Part shown: positions 8,922-52,227 of the stretch, one piece after another
Layout of the letters: each line of letters opens with the position of its first letter
How positions within the stretch are numbered: position 1 is the first letter of the stretch
Assembly (NCBI GenBank): GCA_966251135.1
Contig: CBINKC010000003.1
Span: 9,139 to 73,138, forward strand
DNA: 64,000 nt
Direction: 5' to 3'
Source: an uncultured Burkholderiaceae bacterium
Lineage (GTDB): Bacteria; Pseudomonadota; Gammaproteobacteria; Burkholderiales; Burkholderiaceae_C
Notes under the pieces: generated by a model
What the model saw: the letters and a program-made list of their open reading frames with translations, nothing else
Databases searched by the model: none
What the model was told of the DNA's origin: nothing
Made by a program: the position numbers and the translations under genes

Positions 8922-9389
8922 ATGAAGTCCGAGCTGATACTCATCGCGAACTCGACCGAGGCGCGATTTTTCATCCGCAAGCCAGGCCAGGAGCGCTTGA
9001 CATTCCTGGAAACGCTGGAGCATCCCGAAGGCCGGCTCAAGGCCTCCGAGCTGGGCGACGACCGACCCGGCCACGGCAGCAGCGACCAGCGCCCCGGCGG
9101 TGTGCCGTTCACACCGCGCACCGACCCACACCACAAGGCGCACCTGCAGTTCGCCCACCGCCTGGCCGACCGCATCAATGAGCTCATGGCTGACGGCAGC
9201 CTCGGCGGCATCATGCTCTTCGCCTCGTCGCCCTTCCTCGGCGAGCTGAAAGCGGCGATGAGCGCGGCCGCGCAGAAGGCGGTGCACGCCACAGCGGACG
9301 TGGACCTGACCGCGGTGCCCGCAGGAGAACTCAACGCGCGATTGGGCGAAGAGCTGAGGCAGCGCGGCCGCGCTGCGGGACAGTCCTGA
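8922..9389 (+). CDS. Host attachment protein family (baeRF/AtsE-like)
   Basis: ILIANSTEARFF, LEHPEGRLKASELGDDRPG, FASSPFLGELK family pattern. Confidence 0.85.
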   Translation: MKSELILIANSTEARFFIRKPGQERLTFLETLEHPEGRLKASELGDDRPGHGSSDQRPGGVPFTPRTDPHHKAHLQFAHRLADRINELMADGSLGGIMLFASSPFLGELKAAMSAAAQKAVHATADVDLTAVPAGELNARLGEELRQRGRAAGQS

Positions 9390-9434
9390 CTGCCAGTCCC
9401 CTCTGCCGCGAGGCGGAGGACCGTGGCGCCTGCG

Positions 9435-9854
9435 CTACCCGGAAGTCCGTGATCCAGCGCGGGCGCCGTTGCGGCGCGCCGGCGCGCGCTTGGGCGCAGC
9501 CCTGCCCGCGCTGCGATGCGCCTTCATCACTTGCTCCAGCCCTTCGGCGGTGCCTCGCAGAACCTGCTGCACAGCCTGCAGCACCAAGCCGCCGATGTCA
9601 CGCGCGACGAGCACGGGCTCCTGGGTGGAGACCTTCGCAAGCGCCGTTTCCAGCGTCTGCGACACCATGCGCCGAACCACCTTCGCGATCTCGCCCTCGA
9701 TGGCTTGCAGCTCCTTCATGGTGGCCGCGATCTCGCGCTTGAGCACCCGCATGTCCGGGCTGCGCGCGGAGCTTGCGCGTGTGGTGGTCGCCGCCTTGCG
9801 CCGTGCGGTGCCCGCCGTGGAGGTGCCCGTCGTCGATCTGGATGCAGTGGCCAT
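9435..9854 (-). CDS. Hypothetical helical protein with basic low-complexity termini (DUF6781-like)
   Basis: GAGGAG RBS; amphipathic helical core (EIAATMKELQAIEGEIAKVVRRMV...LRGTAEGLEQ); Arg/Ala-rich tails. Confidence 0.6.
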   Translation of the reverse strand: MATASRSTTGTSTAGTARRKAATTTRASSARSPDMRVLKREIAATMKELQAIEGEIAKVVRRMVSQTLETALAKVSTQEPVLVARDIGGLVLQAVQQVLRGTAEGLEQVMKAHRSAGRAAPKRAPARRNGARAGSRTSG

Positions 9855-9928
9855 GAAAACTCCTCGTGCAGTTGCAGACGTTCAGACATGGAAGCGCGAA
9901 CCGGGAAACGCAGGCTGCGCTCCTACCG

Positions 9929-9970
9929 ACACTAGGCGTGCGCCTGCCTATTTGGATTGATGCGCGTCAG
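9929..9970 (-). promoter_or_regulatory. FNR/Anr-like box (TTGAT-GCGC-GTCAG on +) with -10 TAGTGT on the minus strand
   Basis: Box at 9957-9970; -10 at 9934-9929 places the centre at -41.5 (class II spacing), upstream of the 9854 gene. Confidence 0.6.
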
Positions 9971-10115
9971 CCGCAAGACACCGGCCCTGGCAAGGTCTCG
10001 CCGTGTCGCGCATCCGCCACGGCGCTTACACGGCAAACACGATGACTCCTACCATGAGTCGCGCCGGCTGGGGCGCCAGCCAGCACCTTCATGGTCAACA
10101 ACAGGAGTACCGACA

Positions 10116-10688
10116 ATGAAACGCTTCATCGCCACCGCGGTTGCTCTCACCGGCATGGCCTTTTCCGCGAGTGCATTGGCCCAGGGCTACGTCGGTGTGT
10201 CAGCCGGCCGCTCGCGCATCGACCTCGACTGCGCCGGAACCACGAGCTGTGATCGCACCGACACCGGCGCCAAGATCTTCGGCGGCTACATGTTCATGCC
10301 GAACTTCGGTGCGGAGATCGCCTACTACGATCTGGGCAAGGCGGAGGTCACCGGTGTGGATTCCACATTGGGCACAGTGACCGGCTCGCTGCGTGGCAAG
10401 AGCTTCGGCGTCTTCGGCGTAGCCGCCGCGCCATTCGGACCGTTCTCCGTGTTCGGCAAGCTGGGAGCCGTGTCGACCAAGGCGGAGGTCGAGGCCAGCT
10501 CGGCGTCGCTGGGCCTCGGCGGCAGCGACTCCGAGCGCAAGACGAATCTGGGATGGGGCCTGGGCGCCTCCTACGAGTTCACGAACAACATCGGCGTGCG
10601 GGCCGAGTTCGAGCGGATACGCGTCGAGTTCGCCGACGACAAGGACGACGTGGATCTCATCACCCTCGGCGTGCATTACCGCTTCTGA
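10116..10688 (+). CDS. Outer-membrane beta-barrel protein (OmpA-like transmembrane domain)
   Basis: Signal peptide ending ALA; GAKIFGGYMF.PNFGAEIAYYDLG; C-terminal GVHYRF (BAM signal). Confidence 0.88.
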   Translation: MKRFIATAVALTGMAFSASALAQGYVGVSAGRSRIDLDCAGTTSCDRTDTGAKIFGGYMFMPNFGAEIAYYDLGKAEVTGVDSTLGTVTGSLRGKSFGVFGVAAAPFGPFSVFGKLGAVSTKAEVEASSASLGLGGSDSERKTNLGWGLGASYEFTNNIGVRAEFERIRVEFADDKDDVDLITLGVHYRF

Positions 10689-10730
10689 GCAGGCCAGGCC
10701 GGCCGGCTACAGCGCGCTCGCCATGCGCCG

Positions 10731-38798: not shown

Positions 38799-39566
38799 CG
38801 CCGGCACGGCGTAATGCGCTTCGCTCAGCAGGTCGATGCCGCAGGGCAGCGTCTGGATCCAGTCGATGAACTCGCCTACCGCCGCGCCCATGATGGGCGA
38901 GCCGTGCTGGGGAACCAGCATGTCGATGCTCAGCTTGCGCACCATCTGCGCCCAGAGCCGCAACACCTTGTTCGACACCATGTAGCGCCGATGGAAGGCT
39001 TCCATGCGGTGCAGCTGGCCGGCCAGCGAGGTGATGGGGCGCTGGGCCTCGGCGCCGGTGCCCATCGACACGCCGAGGTCGCCTGAGAAGAGGATGCGGC
39101 TCGCCGGGTCGTAGAAGTGGAAGTTCCCCTCCGAATGCAGGAAATGCGCCGGCAAGGCGATGAGTTCGCCACGGCCGATGCGGATGCGCATGCCCGCATC
39201 CGGGATGCCGACGATCCGCCCGGCCGTCTTGCCCGGTTTGCAGAAATGTGGAGCGAAGCGCTCCCAGACGCGGGAGATGTAGAGCTTGGCCCCGGTGGTG
39301 GCCGTCATCCAGCGGTCGAGAGAGGCAATGATGTCGGGGTCGGCGTGCGAAGCGAGGATGGCCGACAACTGGTGCGGCGGGAAGTGCCGCGTCATCGACA
39401 GGTACAGATCGGTGTACGCGAGGTTGCCGCCCGGATCGATGATGGCGCCCGTGTCCCCGTTCACGACGAGGAACTGGTTGGACTGCACGGCTTCACCGCC
39501 CTCGTCGCACAGGTCGGTGAACATGAGGCACTGGTGGCCGTCGTAATTGAAAAGTTCGATGGGCAT
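38796..39566 (-). CDS. ODP-like oxygen-binding di-iron metallo-beta-lactamase-fold protein
   Basis: SNQFLV, IIDPGG, SHADPD, AHFLHSEGNF, LFSGD, VPQHG; no flavodoxin domain; start re-assigned to ATG 39566. Confidence 0.8.
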   Translation of the reverse strand: MPIELFNYDGHQCLMFTDLCDEGGEAVQSNQFLVVNGDTGAIIDPGGNLAYTDLYLSMTRHFPPHQLSAILASHADPDIIASLDRWMTATTGAKLYISRVWERFAPHFCKPGKTAGRIVGIPDAGMRIRIGRGELIALPAHFLHSEGNFHFYDPASRILFSGDLGVSMGTGAEAQRPITSLAGQLHRMEAFHRRYMVSNKVLRLWAQMVRKLSIDMLVPQHGSPIMGAAVGEFIDWIQTLPCGIDLLSEAHYAVPA

Positions 39567-39591
39567 CGGGCGCCGGTGTGCAAAGCTGCGC

Positions 39592-39632
39592 ACTGTACGG
39601 AGGGCCCCTGCCTGCGCCTTGCTCCAGATCAA
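39592..39632 (-). promoter_or_regulatory. FNR/Anr-like box (TTGAT-CTGG-AGCAA) with -10 TACAGT for the ODP gene
   Basis: Box at 39619-39632; -10 at 39597-39592 places the centre at about -40.5. Confidence 0.65.
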
Positions 39633-39717
39633 GACCACAGGCGCCATGCGCACGGGCGAACCGCCGACGTGCAGTACTCACGCGGGCCTGGTGCAGCCCA
39701 ACCCCGCCCTGGGGCGA

Positions 39718-40716
39718 TCAGAACTCTTCGGTATCCACCTCCGCCAAGGTGGCGGGGTTGTAGCGCGGGCCGACGACAGTGCGCGGGTTCACGGCGCGTT
39801 CGACGCGTTCCCACTGCTCCGGGGTTAGCCGCACCTGCAGCGCTCCGAGGTTCTCTTCGAGGTGCGCCATGCGTGTGGTGCCCGGGATCGGCACGATGTG
39901 CTCGCCACGCTGCAGCAGCCACGCCAGCGCCAGCTGTGCCAGCGTGCATCCCGCCTCGCGCGCCACGGCCTGCGCCTCGTCGAGCAGGCGCAGGTTGGCC
40001 GCGTAGTTCTCCGGGCTGAAGCGCGGCATGGCGCGCCGGATGTCCTTGGCGGCGAGGTGCCTCACCTCGCGCAGGGCATCGGTGAGAAAACCGCGGCCGA
40101 GCGGGCTGAAGGCCACGTAGGCGATACCCAGCTCGCGACAGGCGGCCAGCGTGCCCAGCTCCGCATTGCGGCTCCACAGCGAATACTCGGACTGCAGGGC
40201 CGCGATGGGGTGCACCGCATGCGCCCGGCGCAGCGTCGCCGTGGAGACTTCGGACAGCCCGACTGCGCGGATCTTGCCCTCGCGCACCAGCTCGGCCAGG
40301 GCACCGACGCTGTCCTCGATGGGCACCTGCTTGTCCCAGCGATGCAGGTAGTAGAGGTCGATCACGTCCGTGCGCAGCCGGCGCAGGCTCGCTTCGCATG
40401 TGGCCTTCAGCGTGGCCGGGCGGCCATCGATCACCCGCCTGCCGTCCACGCCCTGCATGCCGCACTTGCTGGCGAGCGTGAACTGCGATCGATAGCGCGA
40501 CAGTGCGCTCCCCAGCAGTTCTTCATTGGCCCCGAAGCCGTACAACGCCGCCGTATCGAACAGCGTGACGCCCAGTTCCAGCGCGCGCAGCAGCAGCCGC
40601 GCGGCGTCCCCCGGTGCGGGCGGCACGCCGTAGGCATGGCTCAGGTTCATGCAGCCGAGCCCAAGGGCGGATACCTCGATCGGGCCGATGCGTCGGGTTT
40701 TCATCGATGCGGCCAT
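39718..40716 (-). CDS. Aldo/keto reductase
   Basis: LGLGCM, FDTAALYG, LASKCG, IDLYYLHR, IGLSE, AFSPLGRG, IPGTT. Confidence 0.92.
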   Translation of the reverse strand: MAASMKTRRIGPIEVSALGLGCMNLSHAYGVPPAPGDAARLLLRALELGVTLFDTAALYGFGANEELLGSALSRYRSQFTLASKCGMQGVDGRRVIDGRPATLKATCEASLRRLRTDVIDLYYLHRWDKQVPIEDSVGALAELVREGKIRAVGLSEVSTATLRRAHAVHPIAALQSEYSLWSRNAELGTLAACRELGIAYVAFSPLGRGFLTDALREVRHLAAKDIRRAMPRFSPENYAANLRLLDEAQAVAREAGCTLAQLALAWLLQRGEHIVPIPGTTRMAHLEENLGALQVRLTPEQWERVERAVNPRTVVGPRYNPATLAEVDTEEF

Positions 40717-40720
40717 GGCC

Positions 40721-41686
40721 TCACCCTTGCGTGAGCTGCCGTTCCAGCCGGTCCAGCACTTCGTAGCAGGGCAGCACCTGCGCCACGCTGGCGTTGGGTT
40801 CGCGCCTTTCCCGGATCGCGGCGAAAAACTCCCGGTCCTGGAGTTCGATGCCGTTGGTGGAGACATCGACCTTCGAGACGTCGATCTTCTCTTCCTTGCC
40901 GGTGTAGAGATCGTCGTAGCGAGCGATGTAGGTGCCGGTATCGCCGATGTATCGGAAGAACGTGCCCAGCGGCCCGTCGTTGTTGAACGACAGGCTCAAC
41001 GTGCAGATCGCGCCGTTGGCCGCCTTGAGCTGGATCGACATGTCCATGGCGATGCCCAGCGCGGAATGGGAGGGCCCCTGCAACGCATTGGCCTTCACGA
41101 TCGGGCTGCCCACCTGGTAGGCGAAGAGGTCCACGGTGTGCGCCGCGTGGTGCCACAGCAGGTGGTCGGTCCAGCTGCGCGGCTGGCCCAGCGCGTTGGT
41201 GTTCGTGCGACGGAAGAAATAGGTCTGCACGTCCATCTGGTAGACCTGGAACTCGCCTGCCCTAACCCGGCGATGGACCCACTGGTGGCTGGGATTGAAG
41301 CGCCGCGTGTGGCCGCACATGGCCACGAGCCCCGTCTCGCGCTGCATGCGCACCACGTCCTGGGCATCGGCCAGCCGGTCGGCCAGCGGGATCTCCACCT
41401 GCACGTGCTTGCCGGCCTTCAGGCAGGCAATGGCCTGCGAGGCGTGCATCTGCGTGGGCGTGCACAGGATCACCGCATCGACCTCGGACAGGGCCAGGCT
41501 TTCGTTCAGGTCGGTGGTGCAGTGGCGGATGCCGTACTTGCCGGCCACCTCGCGGGTCTGCTCGGGCTGGCGGCTGACAAGCGAGACGACCTCCACGCCC
41601 GCGATGCTGCGCAGGGCGTCGAGGTGCTTCACACCGAACGCGCCCGCACCGGCGAGCGCGACCTTGATCGTGTTCTGGCGGCTCAT
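40721..41686 (-). CDS. ligC: 4-carboxy-2-hydroxymuconate-6-semialdehyde dehydrogenase (Gfo/Idh/MocA)
   Basis: KVALAGAGAFG, HVQVEIP, RRFNPSHQW, WTDHLLWHHAAHTVD; follows ligAB. Confidence 0.9.
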   Translation of the reverse strand: MSRQNTIKVALAGAGAFGVKHLDALRSIAGVEVVSLVSRQPEQTREVAGKYGIRHCTTDLNESLALSEVDAVILCTPTQMHASQAIACLKAGKHVQVEIPLADRLADAQDVVRMQRETGLVAMCGHTRRFNPSHQWVHRRVRAGEFQVYQMDVQTYFFRRTNTNALGQPRSWTDHLLWHHAAHTVDLFAYQVGSPIVKANALQGPSHSALGIAMDMSIQLKAANGAICTLSLSFNNDGPLGTFFRYIGDTGTYIARYDDLYTGKEEKIDVSKVDVSTNGIELQDREFFAAIRERREPNASVAQVLPCYEVLDRLERQLTQG

Positions 41687-41687
41687 G

Positions 41688-42961
<1,274 letters not shown>

Positions 42962-42992
42962 GGTGTTGTCTCCTGCTCCTGTCGATGCGCCT

Positions 42993-43913
42993 TCAGCCGC
43001 CCGCTTCCTCGGGCCAGTACAGGCGCATCGGGTTGTCCACGAGCAGCTTGCGCTGCATCTCGGGCGTGGTGGCGATGTGCGGGATGAAGTCGACCAGCAA
43101 GCCGTCATCAGGCATGTGGTCCTTGAGGTTGGGATGCGGCCAGTCGGTGCCCCACAGCACGCGGTCGGGAAACGCCTCGACCACGCGGCGCGCGAACGGC
43201 ACCACGTCGCGGTAGGGGTTGCGCTCGCCGTGGAGCGCGGGCGGCCCGCTCACCGACAGCCGCTCGGGACAGCTCACCTTGCTCCACACATTGGGGTGCT
43301 CGCGCATGAACTCCAGGAAGAGCGAGAACTCCGGGCCGTCGAGGGGCTGAGTCACATCGGGGCGACCCATGTGGTCGACCACCACGCCGGTGGGCAGCGC
43401 GGTGAAGAAATCCCACAGTTCCGGCAGGTCCTGCGCCTCGAAGTAGATGACCACGTGCCAGCCCCGCTGCGCGATGCGCCCGGCGATCTCCATCAACTCG
43501 TCCTTGGGCGTGAAGTCCACCAGCCGCTTGACGAAGTTGAAGCGCACGCCGCGCACACCGGCGTCGTGCATGGCCTGCAGCTCGGCGTCGGCCACGTCGC
43601 GGCGCACCGTGGCGACACCACGCGCCCGCCCGCCGGAATGCACGAGCGCATCGACCATGGCGCGGTTGTCCGCGCCGTGGCAGGTGGCCTGCACCACCAC
43701 GTTGCGAGCGAAGCCGAGGTGGTCGCGCAGGGCATAGAGCTGCTCCTTGCTCGCGTCGCAGGGCGTGTACTTGCGCTCCGGGGCATAGGGGAACTGCTCG
43801 CCCGGGCCGAACACGTGGCAGTGCGCATCCACCGCGCCGGGCGGCACCTGGAAGTGCGGCTTGCTGGGGTGGGGGGTCCAGTCGAGCCAGCCGGGGGTCT
43901 TCTGGAATTCCAT
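42993..43913 (-). CDS. ligI: 2-pyrone-4,6-dicarboxylate lactonase
   Basis: VDAHCHVFGP, YTPCDA, VQATCHG, DHMGRP, WGTDWPHPN. Confidence 0.93.
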   Translation of the reverse strand: MEFQKTPGWLDWTPHPSKPHFQVPPGAVDAHCHVFGPGEQFPYAPERKYTPCDASKEQLYALRDHLGFARNVVVQATCHGADNRAMVDALVHSGGRARGVATVRRDVADAELQAMHDAGVRGVRFNFVKRLVDFTPKDELMEIAGRIAQRGWHVVIYFEAQDLPELWDFFTALPTGVVVDHMGRPDVTQPLDGPEFSLFLEFMREHPNVWSKVSCPERLSVSGPPALHGERNPYRDVVPFARRVVEAFPDRVLWGTDWPHPNLKDHMPDDGLLVDFIPHIATTPEMQRKLLVDNPMRLYWPEEAGG

Positions 43914-43918
43914 GGCGG

Positions 43919-44845
43919 TCAGTCCTTGTTCGTGCGGACGTGCCTGAGGATGCGGTCGGCCTCGGTGCGCCAGTCGGGGCTGCGCGCGAACTCCTGGCTG
44001 CCGCGCGGGCCGAAGAGCCCCGCGTCGGCAAGATCGGCGACCCAGGCCTGGCGCTCGGCCGTGCCGCTGGCCGACCACGGCTCCAGGCCCGCCTCGCGCA
44101 CGGTCTCGGCCACCTCGCGCACTTCCTCGCTGCGGCGGCGGCCGTGCTCGATCACGCGCTGGAAGAAGTAGGCCGCCTGCTTCTCCCAGTCGATGCCGGG
44201 GAAGGTTTCGGCCAGCGAGGCGATGACCGCATCTTCCACGCCGTAATGGCGCGCCGCCGTGAAGCTCTCGATGACCATGGCCTCCAGGCCCTTGATCATC
44301 ACGCTGCGGCACATCTTGGTGGCCGAGGCCACGCCCAGCTTCTCGCTCGCGACCTTCGCGTCGAAGCCCAGCGCATGGAGGAGCGGCGCCAGCTCGGCCG
44401 CGCCCGCGCCGCCCAGCAGCAAGGGCACGTTGATGCGATACGGCGGAATCGAGGTCATCACCGCCCCTTCGACATAACGGCCGCCCGCGCCATCGATGAG
44501 CGCGGCCGCGCGCTGCTTGGCGCCCGGCGAAGCGGAGTTGAAGTCGAGAAACCAGGCGCCACGCCTTACGGCCGGCGCGCAAGCCTCGGCCACGGGCACG
44601 GCCTGGCTCGCAGTGACCGCAGACACGATGAAGTCGGCACACGAGGCCAGTTCCGCATGCGAGCCCACGAGCGACACGCCGCGCGCACCGGCGTGGTCAT
44701 GCAGCTCACCGGCCTGCGACCCGCCCAGCTTCAGGTCATAGGCACTGACCTGCACGCCTTGCGCACCGAGGTCTTCGGCCAGGATGCGTCCGACCTCGCC
44801 ATAGCCCACGAGGCCCACATGCCATTGCTTGGGGTCGATCGTCAT
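43919..44845 (-). CDS. NAD(P)-dependent oxidoreductase, DUF1932/6PGD-like
   Basis: GLVGYGEVG, DFNSASP, KMCRSVMIKGLEA. Confidence 0.82.
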   Translation of the reverse strand: MTIDPKQWHVGLVGYGEVGRILAEDLGAQGVQVSAYDLKLGGSQAGELHDHAGARGVSLVGSHAELASCADFIVSAVTASQAVPVAEACAPAVRRGAWFLDFNSASPGAKQRAAALIDGAGGRYVEGAVMTSIPPYRINVPLLLGGAGAAELAPLLHALGFDAKVASEKLGVASATKMCRSVMIKGLEAMVIESFTAARHYGVEDAVIASLAETFPGIDWEKQAAYFFQRVIEHGRRRSEEVREVAETVREAGLEPWSASGTAERQAWVADLADAGLFGPRGSQEFARSPDWRTEADRILRHVRTNKD

Positions 44846-44854
44846 CGCGCCCGC

Positions 44855-45538
44855 TCAGTCCATGTAGCGCAGGCCCGCCTTCTCCAGCGGCTCGCGCATC
44901 TTGTACATGTCCAGGCCCAGCACCCCGGAGGCGAGCGTCTCGCGCTTCTGGCCTTCGTTGGCCTCGCGGGTGGTGGCCGCTGCCAGCGCCATGGCCGCCA
45001 GCGCGCGGGGCACGCAGACCACGCCGTCGTCATCGGCCACGATCACGTCGCCCGGCGTGACGAGCGCGCCGGCACACACGACCGGGATGTTCACCGAGCC
45101 GAGCGTCGCCTTGATCGTGCCCTTGGAGCTGATGGCCTTGCTCCACACCGGAAACTTCATCTCGGCCAGGGTGCGGATGTCCCTCACGCCGGCATCGATG
45201 ACGAGTGCGCGTGCGCCGCGAGCCTGGAACGAGGTGGCCAGCAAATCACCGAAGTAGCCGTCCGTGCATTCGGAGGTGACCGCGGCCACGACGACATCGC
45301 CGGGACGGATCTGCTCGGCCGCGACGTGCAACATCCAGTTGTCCCCGGGTTGCAGCAGCACGGTGACCGCCGGGCCCGAAACCTGCGCACCCGCATAGAT
45401 GGGCCGCATGTAAGGCTTGAGCAGGCCGACACGGCCCATCGCCTCGTGCACCGTGGCGCTCCCGAAGCGGGCGAGCGGCCCGGCGATGGCGGCATCCGTG
45501 CGCTGGATGTTGCGGTAGACCACTCCGAGTTCGTACAT
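44855..45538 (-). CDS. ligK: 4-carboxy-4-hydroxy-2-oxoadipate aldolase / oxaloacetate decarboxylase
   Basis: [41 protein letters not shown]. Confidence 0.94.
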
Positions 45539-45539
45539 C

Positions 45540-46565
45540 TCACTTCCCCTTGGCCTTGAGTGCGGCGTCGAGGCGCGGGTAGACCCGCCGCGCGTTGCCC
45601 TCGTAGATCTTGTGGCGCTGCTCGGCATTCATGGCCGACGCCTCGATATAGCGCCGGGTGTCGTCGTAGTGGTGCCCGGTCTCGGGATCGATGCCGCGTA
45701 CCGCACCGATCATCTCGCTGGCGAACAGGATGTTGTCGATGGGGATCACCTTCGTCAGCAGGTCGATGCCCGGCTGGTGATAGACGCAGGTATCGAAGTA
45801 GATGTTGTCGAGCAAATGGTCCTTCAGCAGCGGCTTCTTCAGCTCCTGGGCGAGGCCGCGAAAGCGCCCCCAGTGATAGGGCACCGCGCCGCCGCCATGC
45901 GGAATCACGAACTTGAGGTCGGGGAAGTCCTTGAACAGGTCGCCAGTCAGGCACTGCATGAAGGCCGTCGTGTCGGCATTGAGGTAGTGCGCCCCTGTGG
46001 TGTGGAAGCACGGGTTGCAGCTCGTGCTCACGTGGATCATGGCGGGAATGCGGTACTCGACCATCTTTTCGTAGATGGGGTACCAGTGCCGGTCCGTCAG
46101 CGGCGGCGAGTTCCAGTGGCCGCCCGAAGGATCGGGGTTGAGGTTGATGGCGACGAAACCATACTCATTGACGCACTTCTCCAGCTCCGGGATGCAGGTC
46201 TTCGGGTCCACGCCTGGTGACTGGGGCAGCATGGCTGCGCCGATGAAGTGATCGGGAAAGCGCTGCGACACCCGATAGCACAGCTCGTTGCAGATGGCCG
46301 CCCAGGTGGACGACACCTCGAAGTCGCCGATGTGGTGGGCCATGAAGCTGGCGCGCGGGCTGAACACCGTGAGGTCCGAGCCGCGCTCCTTCATGAACCG
46401 GAGCTGGTTGGCCTCGATGGACTCGCGCAGCTCGTCGTCCGAGATCTTCAGGTCGGCCACCTTGGGCTTCACCGCGGGGTCCTCGATCCCGGCGATCTGC
46501 TGGTGGCGCCAACTCTCCAACGCCTTGGGTGCCGTGGTGTAGTGACCGTGGCAGTCGATGATCAT
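45540..46565 (-). CDS. ligJ: 4-oxalomesaconate hydratase
   Basis: [45 protein letters not shown]. Confidence 0.94.
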
Positions 46566-46609
46566 CGTCGCGGTCTCCAGATGTCGTGCAGGAGGTGTGT
46601 GTTGCAGGT

Positions 46610-47299
46610 TCAGGCAGGCTCCATGCCTTGCCGCCGCTTCGCCTCGGCCGCCTCGGGCGAGGCCATGAAGTCGAGCAGCGCCCGTGCGGCTTCGGGCTGC
46701 GTGGAGGCGGCGCACAGACCGCCCGAGAACGTGGTCAGGATCTCCAGGCCCGGCGGCATGGGGCCGAGCACCTCGATGCCCTCCAGATGCATCAGCTCGC
46801 TGCGCTGCTGGAACCCCAGCTCCACCTCACCGCGTGCCACCAAGGCTCCCACCGGCACGCCGGGCGGGGCCTGCACGATGCGCCCGTGCAGGGTTTCGGT
46901 GATGCCCCAGCGTTCGAAGAGCTCTTGCAGCGCCACGCCACTCGGGCCGGTGGAATAGCCCAGCGTGCGGGCCGCGAGCACGGCGCCACGCAGCGCCTCT
47001 TCGGAGCCGATGTCCGGACGCGGCGCCCCCAGTCGCACCGCGATGGCCACGCCGGAGCGCACCAGATCGGTCTTGCTGTCGCGCCACACGCGGCCGGCGG
47101 CGATGAGCTTGTCGATGGCATCCGAGGCGAGCACGACCACATCGAAAGGCTCGCCAGCCTGCACCCGCCGGGCGGCATCGACTCCGCCTACGGATTCGAA
47201 CGTCACCACCACGCCGCTGCGCCTCTCGCAGGCCCCGGCCAACTCGGCAAGCACCTGGCGCGTGGCCATGGACGAAATGCCGGTGATCCTCGTCGTCAT
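46610..47299 (-). CDS. ModA-like substrate-binding-fold protein lacking a signal peptide
   Basis: ISSMAT..VL, FESVGG, FDVVVLA, RSGVAIAVR.G, YSTGPSG, GFQQRSEL; starts directly with the mature domain. Confidence 0.8.
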   Translation of the reverse strand: MTTRITGISSMATRQVLAELAGACERRSGVVVTFESVGGVDAARRVQAGEPFDVVVLASDAIDKLIAAGRVWRDSKTDLVRSGVAIAVRLGAPRPDIGSEEALRGAVLAARTLGYSTGPSGVALQELFERWGITETLHGRIVQAPPGVPVGALVARGEVELGFQQRSELMHLEGIEVLGPMPPGLEILTTFSGGLCAASTQPEAARALLDFMASPEAAEAKRRQGMEPA

Positions 47300-47574
47300 G
47301 TCGGACTCCGCAACCCCGGCGCGGCGTGGTGCATCGGGGCAGGCCATGGAGGGGGGCTCACCGTCATTCTCGTCAAGTGCTCTGCCAGCGAAGTCGGTGA
47401 GGGGATTCACACAGCGCCAATGCCGCCCCGCCCGCTGCGACCCGAACCTGCCGATGCGCCGTGCCGACCGTCTGTTCCGAGTCGTGCAGATTCCGAGATG
47501 AACCCGGCCACACGCTCGCCGACCTGTTCCGGACCGTCGAGAGCGAACGATGCGAGGACGCAGCACCCCCGGCC

Positions 47575-47730
47575 TCAATCGCTCTTGACGTCGCGAGCCT
47601 TGACGATCGCGGCGTAGCGCCGGCTGTCTTTCTTCAGCTTGCCCTCGCGCACGTGGCTGGTCTTTTTGGTCGGCCATGGGGCCTGCCGAGCGTAGGCACC
47701 GGCGCCCACGATGCCCACTTGTGTACGCAT
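47575..47730 (-). pseudogene. Chimeric deletion scar: flavoprotein monooxygenase (PobA-like) start fused to a Bug-protein C-terminus
   Basis: MRTQVGIVGAG...VREGKLKKDSRRYAAIVKARDVKSD*; strong GAGGAGG RBS just after the upstream Bug stop. Confidence 0.55.
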
Positions 47731-47742
47731 GGCCGTCCCTCC

Positions 47743-48714
47743 TCAGCCGTTCCGCGGCAGGCCCAGCGCCTTGATGAGCCTGGCGTACTTGGCGGTCTCG
47801 TCCTGCTGGAACTTGCGCAGCTGCTCGGGCGTGCTGGCGACCACGGTCACGCCGTCCTTCACCAGCGATTCGCGCAGCTTCGGATCGGCGAAGGCCTTCA
47901 CCGTCTCCTGGTGCAGCCGCTGCACGATTGGTGCAGGCGTGCCCGCGGGCGCGTACAGGCCGAACCACAACAGCACCTCGTAGCCCTTTACGCCCGCCTC
48001 CGACATGGTGGGCAAGTTCGGCACAGCCGGCGAGCGCTCCAGGCTCGTCACTGCCAACGCCTTGAGCTTGCCGGTATTCACCAGCGGCAGCGACAGCGCC
48101 GTGCTGTCGAACAGGATGTCCACGTGCCCGCCCAGCGCGTCCTGCACCGCCTGCGCCGGGCCCTTGGCCGGCACGTGCAGCAGCTTCACACCGGCCATCG
48201 AAACCAGCATCTCGCCCGCGATGTGCCCCGAGGTGCCGATACCGGCCGAGGTGTAGGTGAGCTTGCCGGGGTTGGCCTTGGCCTGCGCGATGAGGTCACC
48301 CACGCTCTTGGCGGGATTCGACGGCTGCACCAGCAGCATGTTCGGCACCTTGGTCAGCAGGCTGACCGGCTCGAAGTCCTTGGCCGGGTCATAGGGCAGC
48401 TTCATCAGGCTCGCGTTGATGGCATGCGACGCATGCGATCCCATCAGGATGGTGTAGCCATCGGGCTGGGCCCTCGCCACGAAGTCGCTCCCGATCGTGG
48501 CGCCAGCCCCGGCCTTGTTCTCCACCACCACGGGCTGCCCCATCGACTCCTGCATCTTCTCGGCCAGCGAGCGGGCGATGCGGTCGGTCAGGCCGCCCGG
48601 TGGAAACGGCACGACGAACTTGATCGGCTTGTCGGGATACCCAGCCGGCGTGGCGTGAGCAGCAGGCAGCAGCGCGGCCAGCACAGAGGCCGCCAGTACG
48701 GTTCTACGCTTCAT
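47743..48714 (-). CDS. Bug/TctC substrate-binding protein
   Basis: YPDKPIKFVVPFPPGG, VVVENKAGAG, PDGYTIL. Confidence 0.93.
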   Translation of the reverse strand: MKRRTVLAASVLAALLPAAHATPAGYPDKPIKFVVPFPPGGLTDRIARSLAEKMQESMGQPVVVENKAGAGATIGSDFVARAQPDGYTILMGSHASHAINASLMKLPYDPAKDFEPVSLLTKVPNMLLVQPSNPAKSVGDLIAQAKANPGKLTYTSAGIGTSGHIAGEMLVSMAGVKLLHVPAKGPAQAVQDALGGHVDILFDSTALSLPLVNTGKLKALAVTSLERSPAVPNLPTMSEAGVKGYEVLLWFGLYAPAGTPAPIVQRLHQETVKAFADPKLRESLVKDGVTVVASTPEQLRKFQQDETAKYARLIKALGLPRNG

Positions 48715-49766
48715 GTGGTCATCTCCTTGGCCTTGGCGCCGGGGCTCTCCTCGGCCGCAGCCATCTGTTCAAGCAGCCGGCGCACGCGCGAGGGCCCGGC
48801 ATCAATGGCCAGCCACGTGTACTGGCGCACGCCCGTGACCTCCTGCTCATGCTGCACGGCGGTGCACATCACGTTGTCTTCGCAGAAGGTCGCGTCCATC
48901 CCCTTGGCAAGCTCCTTCTGGAAATCGGGATCACCCACGCGGAAATTGCGCACGTGCATCCAGAAGAAGTGCGTGGAGTTGTCCGTCTCGGGCGTGAGGA
49001 ACTTGTAGCTGAACGCGCGCAGCCCGCGGTCCATGTTCTCCTCGGTGTGCTCCTGGCCCGCGTCCATGGTCGCCACATCCACCCGCGACACGCAGGGCGC
49101 GAAGTAGTTGTAGTACTGGCAGCGGTCGGTGAGCCCCTTGAAGTTGCCGTGGTTCTGGTCGATGGGCGGCGGCGGCGCGTTGTCGGTCCAGCGCCAGCTG
49201 ACCACGTGGTCGCCTTCCTGCTCCACCTTCACCGGCACGTCGCTTGCGGCCGGGTTGCCGATGGTGCCCACGTGCACGAAGGTGGTGTGCGCGGGATCCT
49301 GCAGGTTCTCGGCGATGTTGAGGTAATCGCAGCCATGCTTCTGGTAGCCGCCGTCGATGACGGCCCAACCCGGCTCGCCGTAGCGCAGCACGCGGTGGAT
49401 CTTGGAGGGATCGGCCAGCGCCGGGTCGCCCATCCAGATCCAGATCGCGTTGTAGCGCTCGGCCACCGGGAAGCTGCGCACTTTCGCGGTGGGCGGGATC
49501 TGCTCCTGACCCGGGATGCGGGTGCACTGGCCCGAGCAGTCGAACACCAGCCCGTGGTAGCCGCACTCCACGGCATCGCCGACCAGCCGGCCCAGCGACA
49601 GTGGTGCGAGCTTGTGCGCGCAGCGGTCGATGAGTGCCGCCGGCGTGCCGTCTTGCTTGCGGTACAGCACGATGGGCTCGTTGAGGATGCGTCGCTTGAA
49701 GAGCGTGCGGCCGACCTCGTGCGACCACGCCGCGACGTACCAAGCGTTCCTGATGAACTTGGTCAC
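48711..49766 (-). CDS. Rieske non-heme iron oxygenase, VanA-like O-demethylase family
   Basis: NAWYVAAW, CAH...CGYHG Rieske ligands, ENLQDPAHTTFVH, EDNVMC. Confidence 0.88.
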   Translation of the reverse strand: MTKFIRNAWYVAAWSHEVGRTLFKRRILNEPIVLYRKQDGTPAALIDRCAHKLAPLSLGRLVGDAVECGYHGLVFDCSGQCTRIPGQEQIPPTAKVRSFPVAERYNAIWIWMGDPALADPSKIHRVLRYGEPGWAVIDGGYQKHGCDYLNIAENLQDPAHTTFVHVGTIGNPAASDVPVKVEQEGDHVVSWRWTDNAPPPPIDQNHGNFKGLTDRCQYYNYFAPCVSRVDVATMDAGQEHTEENMDRGLRAFSYKFLTPETDNSTHFFWMHVRNFRVGDPDFQKELAKGMDATFCEDNVMCTAVQHEQEVTGVRQYTWLAIDAGPSRVRRLLEQMAAAEESPGAKAKEMTT

Positions 49767-49814
49767 AGCTTTACTCCTGATGGCGGTGGCGGGGCGTAGC
49801 GCCCCGCATGGTGG

Positions 49815-50657
49815 TTACGGGCGGTCCGTGAAGGTCACAAGCCCCATGCCGCTGGTCATCGGCGCGTAGTAGTTGCGGTGCACGCGTCGCACCTCGTCCT
49901 TGAGCGCACCGCGCATCACCAGCCACATGATCAGTTCCACGGCCTCGGCCCCGGCGGCGGCCATGATGTCCTTGTGCGTCAACTGGGTAAGCGCCGCCGG
50001 GTCGGTTTCGAGCTTGTCCAGGAAGTCGTTGTCCCACTGCGAGTTCATGTGGCCCATGCGCTCGCCATGCAGTTGGTGCGACATGCCCCCGGTGCCGACA
50101 ATCGCCACGCGTAGGTCCTTCGGGTACGAGTCGACCGCGTCGCGGATCGCCCGGCCCAGCTTGAAGCACCGGGCCGCCGTGGGCAGCGGGTGCAGCAGCA
50201 CGTTCACAACGACCGGCACCACCTTCACGCCCCAGTCCGGCTCATGCGAGAAGAGCAATGGCAGCGGCACCAACAGGCCGTGGTCCACCTTCATCTCCTG
50301 GCACACGGTGATGTCGAACTCGTCATTGATGAGCGACTTGATGATGTGCCACGAGAAGTCCGCGTCGCCCGGCACCACCGGCAGCTTGCGCGGGCCGAAG
50401 CCCTCGTCGCCGACGGCGTACTCGTCGGCCGCGCCGATCGCAAACGTCGGGTACTTGTCGAAGAAGAAGTCCGTGCCATGGTCGTTGTAGACCACGATGG
50501 CCACATCGGGCTTCGCCTCGGTCTCCAGCCATTGCTTGACCGGAACGTAGCCGTCGAAGAGCGGCTTCCATGTGGAGTCGACCTGCTTCTGCGTGTCGTA
50601 CGCGCGACCGATGGAGGGGACATGCGAGCTTCCGATGCCCGCGACGATCTTGCCCAT
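49815..50657 (-). CDS. Second class III extradiol dioxygenase beta subunit (LigB-like)
   Basis: SSHVPSIG, VYNDHG, VDHGLLVP, GGMSHQLHG, AEAVEL. Confidence 0.9.
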   Translation of the reverse strand: MGKIVAGIGSSHVPSIGRAYDTQKQVDSTWKPLFDGYVPVKQWLETEAKPDVAIVVYNDHGTDFFFDKYPTFAIGAADEYAVGDEGFGPRKLPVVPGDADFSWHIIKSLINDEFDITVCQEMKVDHGLLVPLPLLFSHEPDWGVKVVPVVVNVLLHPLPTAARCFKLGRAIRDAVDSYPKDLRVAIVGTGGMSHQLHGERMGHMNSQWDNDFLDKLETDPAALTQLTHKDIMAAAGAEAVELIMWLVMRGALKDEVRRVHRNYYAPMTSGMGLVTFTDRP

Positions 50658-50659
50658 GT

Positions 50660-51037
50660 TCAAACTGCTCCTTTGCCACTGCGCGTCTGGAGGAACTGCT
50701 CCAGCGTCTCGCCGCGTTGTTGCGCGCCCATCGTGTACAGGCCCACGCCGAGGCACTCGGCCACCTTGATCATCAGGTAGACGTTGCCGCCAAGGTCCTT
50801 GATCAGATGCAGCCAATCTTGGCCACGCACGGCCTGCTTCTGCGCTTCGCTCAGGCCGTACTTCGCCATGTACGCTTCCCTATCCGCCTTGAAGGCCTCG
50901 CGGTTCTCGGGCTTGGTCAGTGACATGCACATCTTGTTGAAGGGGTAACCGATCCTCGAACGCGTGTAGTCGAACGGATAGGTGCCCGGGATACCCCAAT
51001 CCTGAGGCTGCATCTCCGGGGACTTGGTCTCTTCCAT
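50660..51037 (-). CDS. Second LigA-like alpha subunit
   Basis: IPGTYPFD, GYPFNKMCMSL, GGNVYLMIK. Confidence 0.88.
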   Translation of the reverse strand: MEETKSPEMQPQDWGIPGTYPFDYTRSRIGYPFNKMCMSLTKPENREAFKADREAYMAKYGLSEAQKQAVRGQDWLHLIKDLGGNVYLMIKVAECLGVGLYTMGAQQRGETLEQFLQTRSGKGAV

Positions 51038-51327: not shown

Positions 51328-52227
51328 ATGAACTGGGACGACTACGACGTGTTCTGCCGCGTGGTCGAGCAAGGCGGCTTCAGTGCCGCGGGCCGCGCGA
51401 TGGGCCGTCCACGCTCCAGCATCAGCGCATCGGTGATGCGCCTCGAACACGCGTTGCAGACGCGCCTGCTCGAGCGCACCACGCGCCGGCTACGCATGAC
51501 CGAAGCCGGCGAATCGCTCTACCAAACCATGGGGCCGCTCTTCATTCAGCTACGCGAGGCACGCATGGACCTCGCCGCTCAGGAGGGCACCGTCTATGGC
51601 ATTTTGCGCATGGCCTCGCCCTACGAGTTCGCCGCGCATCACCTCGCTGCCGCTGCCTGCCAAGTCCTGGCGTGTCACCCTCAGCTCCACATGCAGATCG
51701 ACATCGAGTACGCGCGGGTGAGCCCGCTAGAGCGGCCCTACGACATCGTCTTCACCTTGGCAGATGTCCAGACACTCACCGCAGGCACGATCGCACGGCG
51801 GGTGTTCTCGCTGCAGCCCGCGGTGTACGCCGCCCCCTCGCTGCTTCAAGGCCGCGAGGCACCCTCAAGGCCGGAAGACCTGAACGACTTCCCGCTCATC
51901 GCGACGTCCACCGAAGTGGAGTGGCGGTTCGTCGGCCCCGGTGGCGAGCCCCACAGCGTCGCCATGGTCTCCCCACGCTTGCGCACATCCAACGCCGGCG
52001 TGCGGCTGCAGGCCGCCGTCGCGGGCATCGGCATCGCCCGCGTCGGCGCGGCGAGCTATGCGGAGCAGGCCGTGCGCGAGGGCCTGCTGCAGCCCGTACT
52101 GCCTAGCTACGCCTGCATGCCGGTGCCTGTGTATGCCCTCTTGCCTGGGCAACGCCACATGCCGGCGAAGGTGCGCGTCTTCCTCGACACGCTGAGCGAG
52201 CGGTTACCAGGGCCGAGCGGGCACTGA
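51328..52227 (+). CDS. LysR-family regulator (CrgA-like), divergent from the second ligAB operon
   Basis: WDDYDVFCRVVEQGGFSAAG...LERTTRRLRMTEAG. Confidence 0.92.
   Translation: MNWDDYDVFCRVVEQGGFSAAGRAMGRPRSSISASVMRLEHALQTRLLERTTRRLRMTEAGESLYQTMGPLFIQLREARMDLAAQEGTVYGILRMASPYEFAAHHLAAAACQVLACHPQLHMQIDIEYARVSPLERPYDIVFTLADVQTLTAGTIARRVFSLQPAVYAAPSLLQGREAPSRPEDLNDFPLIATSTEVEWRFVGPGGEPHSVAMVSPRLRTSNAGVRLQAAVAGIGIARVGAASYAEQAVREGLLQPVLPSYACMPVPVYALLPGQRHMPAKVRVFLDTLSERLPGPSGH

Follow-up and report, generated by a model that had tools for sequence, protein, structure and literature searches.

We wondered how a bacterium might carry 4-oxalomesaconate (OMA) through the 4,5-cleavage route for protocatechuate when its gene cluster lacks the PrpF-family gene ligU/galD. 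The question is raised by a 64,000-nucleotide stretch of DNA from an uncultured Burkholderiaceae bacterium (GenBank assembly GCA_966251135.1, contig CBINKC010000003.1, forward-strand positions 9,139 to 73,138), hereafter called the window. A preliminary description, made from the letters alone, had noted a cluster with ligJ, ligK, ligI, ligA, ligB and ligC but without ligU/galD, and had proposed that a ModA-like protein encoded 44 bp upstream of ligJ, with no signal peptide and no accompanying permease or ATPase genes, takes the place of LigU. Both observations hold, the first according to Pfam and NCBIfam assignments and to empty tblastn searches with YbhH and with the LigU of PDB 6p3j, the second according to the open reading frame, its Pfam matches and a search for ModB and ModC. 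The gene in question (46610..47299, minus strand) encodes a 229-aa, cytoplasmic protein of the SBP_bac_11 family (ModA fold), a probable 4-oxalomesaconate tautomerase/isomerase, and we refer to it as the pmdU-like gene. It very probably represents an ortholog of PmdU, a cytoplasmic ModA-fold enzyme that converts OMA for LigJ in place of LigU/GalD. The idea that a non-homologous protein with a substrate-binding-protein (SBP) fold replaces LigU is therefore right, being supported by the anti-correlation with PrpF genes and by the orthology to PmdU, but it is not novel. PmdU has been in the literature since 2010, and we claim no discovery because the Comamonas ortholog is already listed as pmdU, ‘OMA tautomerase’.

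Identity of the pmdU-like gene

The pmdU-like gene runs from 47299 to 46610 on the minus strand as an open reading frame of 229 codons, from ATG to TGA, with a GGAG motif about 8 nt 5' of the ATG. Its product matched SBP_bac_11 with an E value of 1.2e-47, residues 8-227 covering profile positions 4-227, and all its Pfam matches were to SBP families. As the match starts at residue 8 there is no space for a leader peptide, and in the alignment its first residues fall where mature ModA begins, at residue 1. The homologs in public data number thousands; almost all are 226-233 aa long and have the start residue in common, which indicates that the short N-terminus is genuine and that an export signal is absent. 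The product scored 35.6 bits against the NCBIfam modA model TIGR01256 (cut-off 62.5) and 18.2 bits against PRK10677 (cut-off 253). No homolog of modB or modC was detected in the window (E<=1e-3), and no modB was found in about 90 loci that carry a pmdU-like gene. The closest genome match, at 84% identity, came from a metagenome-assembled genome (MAG) of an uncultured Burkholderiaceae bacterium. Mean column identity in the family is 74%, a sign of strong purifying selection.

The gene is an ortholog of pmdU. Its product is 64% identical, over the full length, to the protein (P0122) whose gene opens the pmd operon of Comamonas testosteroni, and on C. testosteroni contigs the order of products is SBP_bac_11 (230 aa)-MFS-Amidohydro_2-RraA-like-Amidohydro_2-LigA-LigB-GFO. 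In the supplement of Wilkes 2023 (PMC10154247), CtesDRAFT_PD1892 of C. testosteroni KF-1 is listed as pmdU, ‘OMA tautomerase’, and the tags that follow are listed as pmdK (PD1893), pmdE (PD1894), pmdF (PD1895), pmdD (PD1896), pmdA and pmdB (PD1897 and PD1898) and pmdC (PD1899). For Comamonas sp. E6, Table S6 of PMC12314914 lists PmdU as GAO68739.1, likewise with the description ‘OMA tautomerase’, alongside PmdD (GAO68735), PmdF (GAO68736) and PmdE (GAO68737). The eight-gene order of C. testosteroni maps one-to-one onto PD1892-PD1899 and also fits the consecutive E6 accessions. It is this match of gene order to the published tags, taken together with the 64% identity and the common motifs, that makes the window gene a PmdU ortholog.

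Expression values given for KF-1 show pmdU induced, like the other pmd genes, by log2 4.7-5.8 (26- to 55-fold) on 4-hydroxybenzoate, vanillate and terephthalate (PMC10154247). The name pmdU is attributed to Kamimura et al. 2010 (AEM 76:8093), and the activity of PmdU is taken here from the title of that paper and from the listings in later ones. By analogy with PmdU, the window protein most likely converts OMA.

Linkage to ligJ and exclusivity with PrpF genes

In the window, the stop codon of the pmdU-like gene (46612-46610) is separated from the ligJ ATG (46565-46563) by a 44-bp spacer (46566..46609, minus strand), in which a GGAG lies about 11-14 nt before the ligJ ATG. We scanned one genome per species and obtained 80 loci from Burkholderiales and Rhodocyclales, 69 of which had enough downstream sequence to be evaluated. 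ligJ was found downstream on the same strand in 63 of these 69 genomes and at a distance of 300 bp or less in 59, the gaps clustering around 35-50 bp. Likewise, all 35 plasmid records with a homolog of at least 44% identity had ligJ within about 7 kb. Among them are the Arthrobacter keyseri pcm operon and records of Pseudarthrobacter Sphe3, Streptomyces and Methylobacterium, so the linkage extends beyond Proteobacteria.

The PrpF-type gene is absent where the pmdU-like gene is present. A tblastn search with E. coli YbhH, a PrpF-family protein, gave no match in the window even at E<=10, and YbhH is a sensitive PrpF probe since it matches crystallised LigU at E 2.7e-93. With the LigU of PDB 6p3j as tblastn query there was no match in the window at E<=1e-3, and no PrpF gene was found in the roughly 90 loci with a pmdU-like gene (1.3 Mb in total). 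We also sampled loci centred on ligJ, taking 18 out of 149 plasmid records in which a ligJ-like gene occurs. Six of these loci had only the pmdU-like gene, five only a PrpF-type ligU, seven neither and none both; of the seven with neither, most have a diverged ligJ paralog or break off at a record end. The preliminary description had expected the family to anti-correlate with ligU and had regarded routine co-occurrence in the same clusters as speaking against a replacement; the anti-correlation was found and such co-occurrence was not seen. Moreover, the two genes share a position. In Paraburkholderia caribensis, Ralstonia and Cupriavidus a PrpF gene annotated "4-oxalomesaconate tautomerase" immediately precedes ligJ, in the slot held in the window by the pmdU-like gene.

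Gallate clusters reduce the pathway further. Burkholderia multivorans and Caballeronia have the order gallate dioxygenase-MFS-ligJ-ligK-pmdU-like gene, with a tannase gene adjoining in B. multivorans, and tblastn revealed homologs in this same order in Paraburkholderia phymatum. Because cleavage of gallate gives OMA directly, such clusters are left with just three enzymatic steps, those of the isomerase, the hydratase and the aldolase, and the pmdU-like gene is the only candidate for the missing isomerase step in the minimal ones.

Independently of this, the sequence of 6p3j, deposited as ‘(4E)-oxalomesaconate delta-isomerase’, matches a gene on plasmid NC_008308.1 of Novosphingobium sp. KA1 with 100% identity, and the structure thus represents the KA1 enzyme, not that of SYK-6.

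The function of PmdU has not been propagated into annotation, and this includes the actinobacterial pcm/pca operons and the Burkholderia gallate clusters. RefSeq, JGI and Pfam labels read "substrate-binding domain-containing protein" or "molybdate transport system substrate-binding protein", and the source names of family members are "substrate-binding domain-containing protein", "molybdate ABC transporter..." and, once, "ProX protein", the name under which the Pseudomonas straminea (ochraceae) homolog Q9AQI3 was deposited. A 2021 paper draws the Pseudarthrobacter Sphe3 homolog as pcaT, "ABC-type molybdate transport system", inside the protocatechuate (PCA) 4,5-cleavage cluster (PMC8431788). 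Pathway reconstructions that seek only PrpF-type ligU/galD will show the step as missing in Comamonadaceae and Rhodocyclales, as well as in many Burkholderiaceae and Micrococcaceae, a gap which the PmdU family would fill. Spreading the PmdU name would correct thousands of database entries. The family would also provide a clean case of a binding-protein scaffold turned enzyme and of non-orthologous displacement in an identical operon slot.

A re-lined ModA cleft and the reaction it may serve

An AlphaFold2 model of the pmdU-like product showed two lobes (pLDDT 95.5, pTM 0.89). According to Foldseek the nearest solved structures are ModA-type molybdate-binding proteins (TM score 0.84-0.86, probability 1.00, 15-21% identity), and every structural neighbour of the model is a transporter component. 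A sequence search of the PDB returned only ModA proteins, at E values of at least 7e-8, and there was no solved structure of PmdU or of an enzyme among the sequence and structure matches.

We aligned 53 family members, ranging from Comamonadaceae to Arthrobacter, with E. coli ModA. At the positions which we take to hold molybdate in E. coli ModA (1AMF, mature numbering), Ser12, Ser39, Ala125, Val152 and Tyr170, all 53 members carry Ala, Gly, Ser, Gly and Gln, respectively; the Gln at the Tyr170 position is Gln165 in family numbering. The most conserved stretches, ISSMATR (8-14), SVGGVDAA (36-43), YSTGPSG (115-121), PGVPV (146-150) and GFQQxSE (162-168), sit on the five ligand-binding loops of ModA. 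Arg14, Arg45 and Arg140 are invariant and Glu168 is the sole invariant acidic residue. The cleft is thus retained in the model but re-lined and rich in Ser and Thr, a lining predicted to suit a tricarboxylate. Neither Cys nor His nor Lys is invariant anywhere in the family alignment, and the reaction therefore does not have to follow the chemistry of LigU, for which a Lys/Cys pair has been published.

These features suggest how the protein might work. A class II periplasmic-binding-protein scaffold would have lost its signal peptide, its transporter partners and its molybdate ligands. OMA would arise either from 2-pyrone-4,6-dicarboxylate (PDC) through LigI or directly from gallate dioxygenase, and the pmdU-like product would turn it into the form that LigJ hydrates. 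This would be the same job as that of the unrelated PrpF-family LigU/GalD of sphingomonads, pseudomonads, Ralstonia and Cupriavidus. The literature speaks of a keto/enol ‘tautomerisation’ for PmdU and GalD and of a 1,3-allylic isomerisation to 2-keto-4-carboxy-3-hexenedioate for LigU. The tricarboxylate may be held in the inter-domain cleft by Arg14, Arg45, Arg140 and the Ser/Thr-rich loops, with helix N-termini helping the arginines to bind its carboxylates, and Glu168 or a bound water may act as proton relay.

Several points weigh against this assignment. PmdU was equated with the SBP_bac_11 gene by matching locus tags and gene order, not by a deposited sequence, and among the source names in the protein collection PmdU is not used for any member of the family. 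The catalytic residues proposed above are inferred. Close homologs (65-74% identity) without ligJ downstream occur in 6 of the 69 evaluable species, and some family members may therefore act on another substrate. Finally, our view is that of the 64-kb window, and a PrpF-type ligU is possible elsewhere in the genome.

With a PrpF enzyme located elsewhere, or with OMA isomerising spontaneously, the protein could be a non-catalytic cytoplasmic binder that buffers, channels or senses a tricarboxylate such as PDC or OMA. In its favour, binding proteins have this fold, the structural neighbours are transporter components throughout, and no invariant Cys, His or Lys obviously resembles the published Lys/Cys pair of LigU. 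Nevertheless, we consider such a binder improbable, as the Comamonas ortholog is listed as an enzyme, the exclusivity with PrpF is strict in lig and gal clusters and concerns the same operon slot, and the minimal gallate clusters offer no other candidate for the missing step.

We attach even less weight to the possibility that the protein is an isomerase of this family whose main substrate is another tricarboxylate, for instance cis- or trans-aconitate, with OMA as a side activity. Some close homologs that lack the ligJ linkage lie beside tctAB, and an SBP-derived aconitate isomerase is on record. The preliminary description had pointed to a Pseudomonas aconitate isomerase annotated as a molybdate-binding SBP, which is partly corroborated. 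The study exists (Yuhara et al. 2015, FEBS J 282:4257, on Pseudomonas sp. WU-0701) and is cited by later papers for an enzyme from a non-catalytic ancestor; a literature search for aconitate isomerase together with molybdate retrieved no paper. Against another main substrate stand ligJ as the neighbour here and in the 63 linked orthologs, the induction of pmdU by aromatic substrates, and the fact that relatives with a signal peptide have other sequences at pocket motifs 1 and 2. An aconitate-like substrate is possible for the few ligJ-unlinked homologs and unlikely for the window gene.

The probability that the gene encodes a genuine molybdate/tungstate ModA, or is a decayed remnant of a mod transporter placed beside lig genes by chance, is negligible: homologs do go under the label ‘molybdate ABC transporter substrate-binding protein’ in sequence databases and in several papers, and a weak likeness to ModA proteins of the PDB exists (E ~1e-7, TM score 0.84), but a true ModA is excluded by the failure of four defining features (model score under the cut-off, signal peptide, modBC and ligands, with Ser12, Ser39 and Tyr170 invariantly replaced), and strong purifying selection and ligJ linkage across phyla do not fit a remnant.

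A PmdU ortholog remains the reading that we prefer for the window gene, and relatives of its product can be set out beside it. Seven proteins of 39-44% identity (P0183, P0210, P0234, P0254, P0269, P0272 and P0280) have clear N-terminal signal peptides; they keep YS(S/T)GPSG and GFQQxSE and replace ISSMATR and SVGGVDA. They make up a periplasmic sister group whose members may be aconitate-isomerase-like enzymes or else true binding proteins. In Pseudorhodoferax (L083-L087) and in a Burkholderiaceae MAG (L073), a close homolog (65-67% identity) lies at about 10001-10690 with no lig genes within 10 kb; its neighbours in L084 are a divergent tctA/tctB pair and genes for a beta-lactamase-family protein and a LysR regulator. 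These members may have another substrate; alternatively, the lig genes that go with them may be in another part of the genome. We tentatively raise the idea, which we think has somewhat more against it than for it, that PmdU-type proteins branch off within a wider, unrecognised class of enzymes that derive from ModA-like binding proteins and isomerise unsaturated tricarboxylates without a cofactor. Its members would include the periplasmic aconitate isomerase and the homologs beside tctAB, and would work with an Arg/Ser/Thr-lined cleft and a single carboxylate (Glu168), unlike the Lys/Cys of LigU.

The surrounding operon and its known counterparts

The operon reads, on the minus strand, pmdU-like gene, ligJ, ligK, a DUF1932 gene, ligI, ligA, ligB, ligC and an aldo/keto reductase gene, the members being assigned by Pfam or by NCBIfam scores above the model cut-offs. 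ligJ/pmdE (45540..46565) encodes a 4-oxalomesaconate (KCH) hydratase of 341 aa (Pfam Amidohydro_2, E 1.1e-58). Its product is 81-88% identical to that of the gene at the pmdE position of Comamonadaceae loci and 64% identical to that of Sphingobium fldW, annotated ‘4-oxalomesaconate hydratase’. It is followed by ligK (44855..45538; TIGR02798 ligK_PcmE, 411.7 bits, cut-off 304.5), by a gene for a 308-aa protein with NAD_binding_2 and DUF1932 domains (43919..44845; DUF1932 E 4.7e-19) and by ligI/pmdD (42993..43913), encoding a 2-pyrone-4,6-dicarboxylate hydrolase of 306 aa (Amidohydro_2, E 7.2e-62), a length also given by the gene call on the near-identical contig L005. The dioxygenase genes ligA (42548..42961; TIGR02792, 221.6 bits, cut-off 108.6) and ligB (41688..42542; PRK13366, 582.9 bits, cut-off 317; Pfam LigB, E 1e-81) come next, and then ligC/pmdC (40721..41686), encoding a CHMS dehydrogenase of the Gfo/Idh/MocA type (Pfam GFO_IDH_MocA and OxRdtase_C, E 1e-93), and the aldo/keto reductase gene (39718..40716; Aldo_ket_red, E 1.6e-76).

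The aldo/keto reductase gene is found 3' of ligC in many related loci as well, and the pcm operon of Arthrobacter keyseri closes with an aldo/keto reductase gene and, after it, the PmdU-like gene. The DUF1932 protein, encoded between ligK and ligI, has orthologs of at least 60% identity in 18 of the 80 related loci and in a Diaphorobacter plasmid operon. A more distant relative adjoins ligJ in Sphingobium under the annotation ‘6-phosphogluconate dehydrogenase’. We considered the DUF1932 gene as the missing isomerase and rejected it, given that its product is an NAD-binding-domain protein and that orthologs at this level occur in only those 18 loci.

Beside ligJ-type hydratases we also came across a different gene. 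Plasmids of Phyllobacterium (9108-9968 of locus L102) and Rhizobium (9084-9953 of locus L108) carry a 286-aa gene directly upstream of a ligJ paralog (64-66% identity). It is annotated ‘phosphate ABC transporter substrate-binding protein’, has no Pfam match at E<=0.001 and could be a further case in which a gene of binding-protein type was drawn in next to a LigJ-type hydratase. Next come genes for an alcohol dehydrogenase, an RraA-family protein and an alpha/beta hydrolase.

Directly upstream of the pmdU-like gene lies a second gene set on the minus strand (47743-51037). It comprises a ligA-like gene (50660-51037), a ligB-like gene (49815-50657) whose best NCBIfam model is PRK13365, a gene for a VanA-like Rieske oxygenase (48711-49766) and one for a Bug/TctC binding protein (47743-48714), with a LysR regulator gene in divergent orientation (51328-52227, plus strand). 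We saw no gene for a VanB-type reductase adjoining the set. In this the set is similar to systems that deliver OMA or PDC from substrates of the methoxylated or gallate type. A promoter scan of 39500-47900 gave no promoter-like site and a terminator scan of the same region gave fewer terminator-like sites than shuffled sequences, both scans being uninformative in high-GC DNA.

How does the pmdU-like product compare with known systems? It shares with E. coli ModA (PDB 1amf/1wod) the class II binding-protein fold (TM score 0.84, root-mean-square deviation 2.7 A) and membership of SBP_bac_11. Unlike ModA, it has no leader, no modBC and Ala, Gly and Gln for the ligands Ser12, Ser39 and Tyr170, and it is 3 residues shorter in the loop that precedes the third ligand segment. 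LigU/GalD/FldA (PDB 6p3h, 6p3j, 6p3k) would serve the same pathway step, from the same slot in P. caribensis, Ralstonia and Cupriavidus, but these proteins of about 360 aa have a PrpF/diaminopimelate-epimerase-like fold with no sequence or fold kinship to the pmdU-like product. The WU-0701 aconitate isomerase is said to be an unsaturated-tricarboxylate isomerase that resembles molybdate-binding proteins and is reportedly periplasmic, whereas the window protein is cytoplasmic. PheC of Pseudomonas aeruginosa, a cyclohexadienyl dehydratase, is likewise described as an enzyme on a periplasmic-binding-protein scaffold (Tam & Saier 1993, as cited in a later paper), but it derives from amino-acid-binding proteins, catalyses another reaction and is periplasmic.

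The closest counterpart is PmdU of Comamonas, which is of nearly equal length (230 against 229 aa), has no signal peptide, heads a protocatechuate 4,5-cleavage operon, pmdUKEFDABC, and carries the same five pocket motifs. The operons differ in that the MFS gene pmdK stands between pmdU and pmdE in Comamonas, whereas in the window ligJ follows directly after the 44-bp spacer, and in that the window operon adds the DUF1932 gene between ligK and ligI and the aldo/keto reductase gene after ligC.

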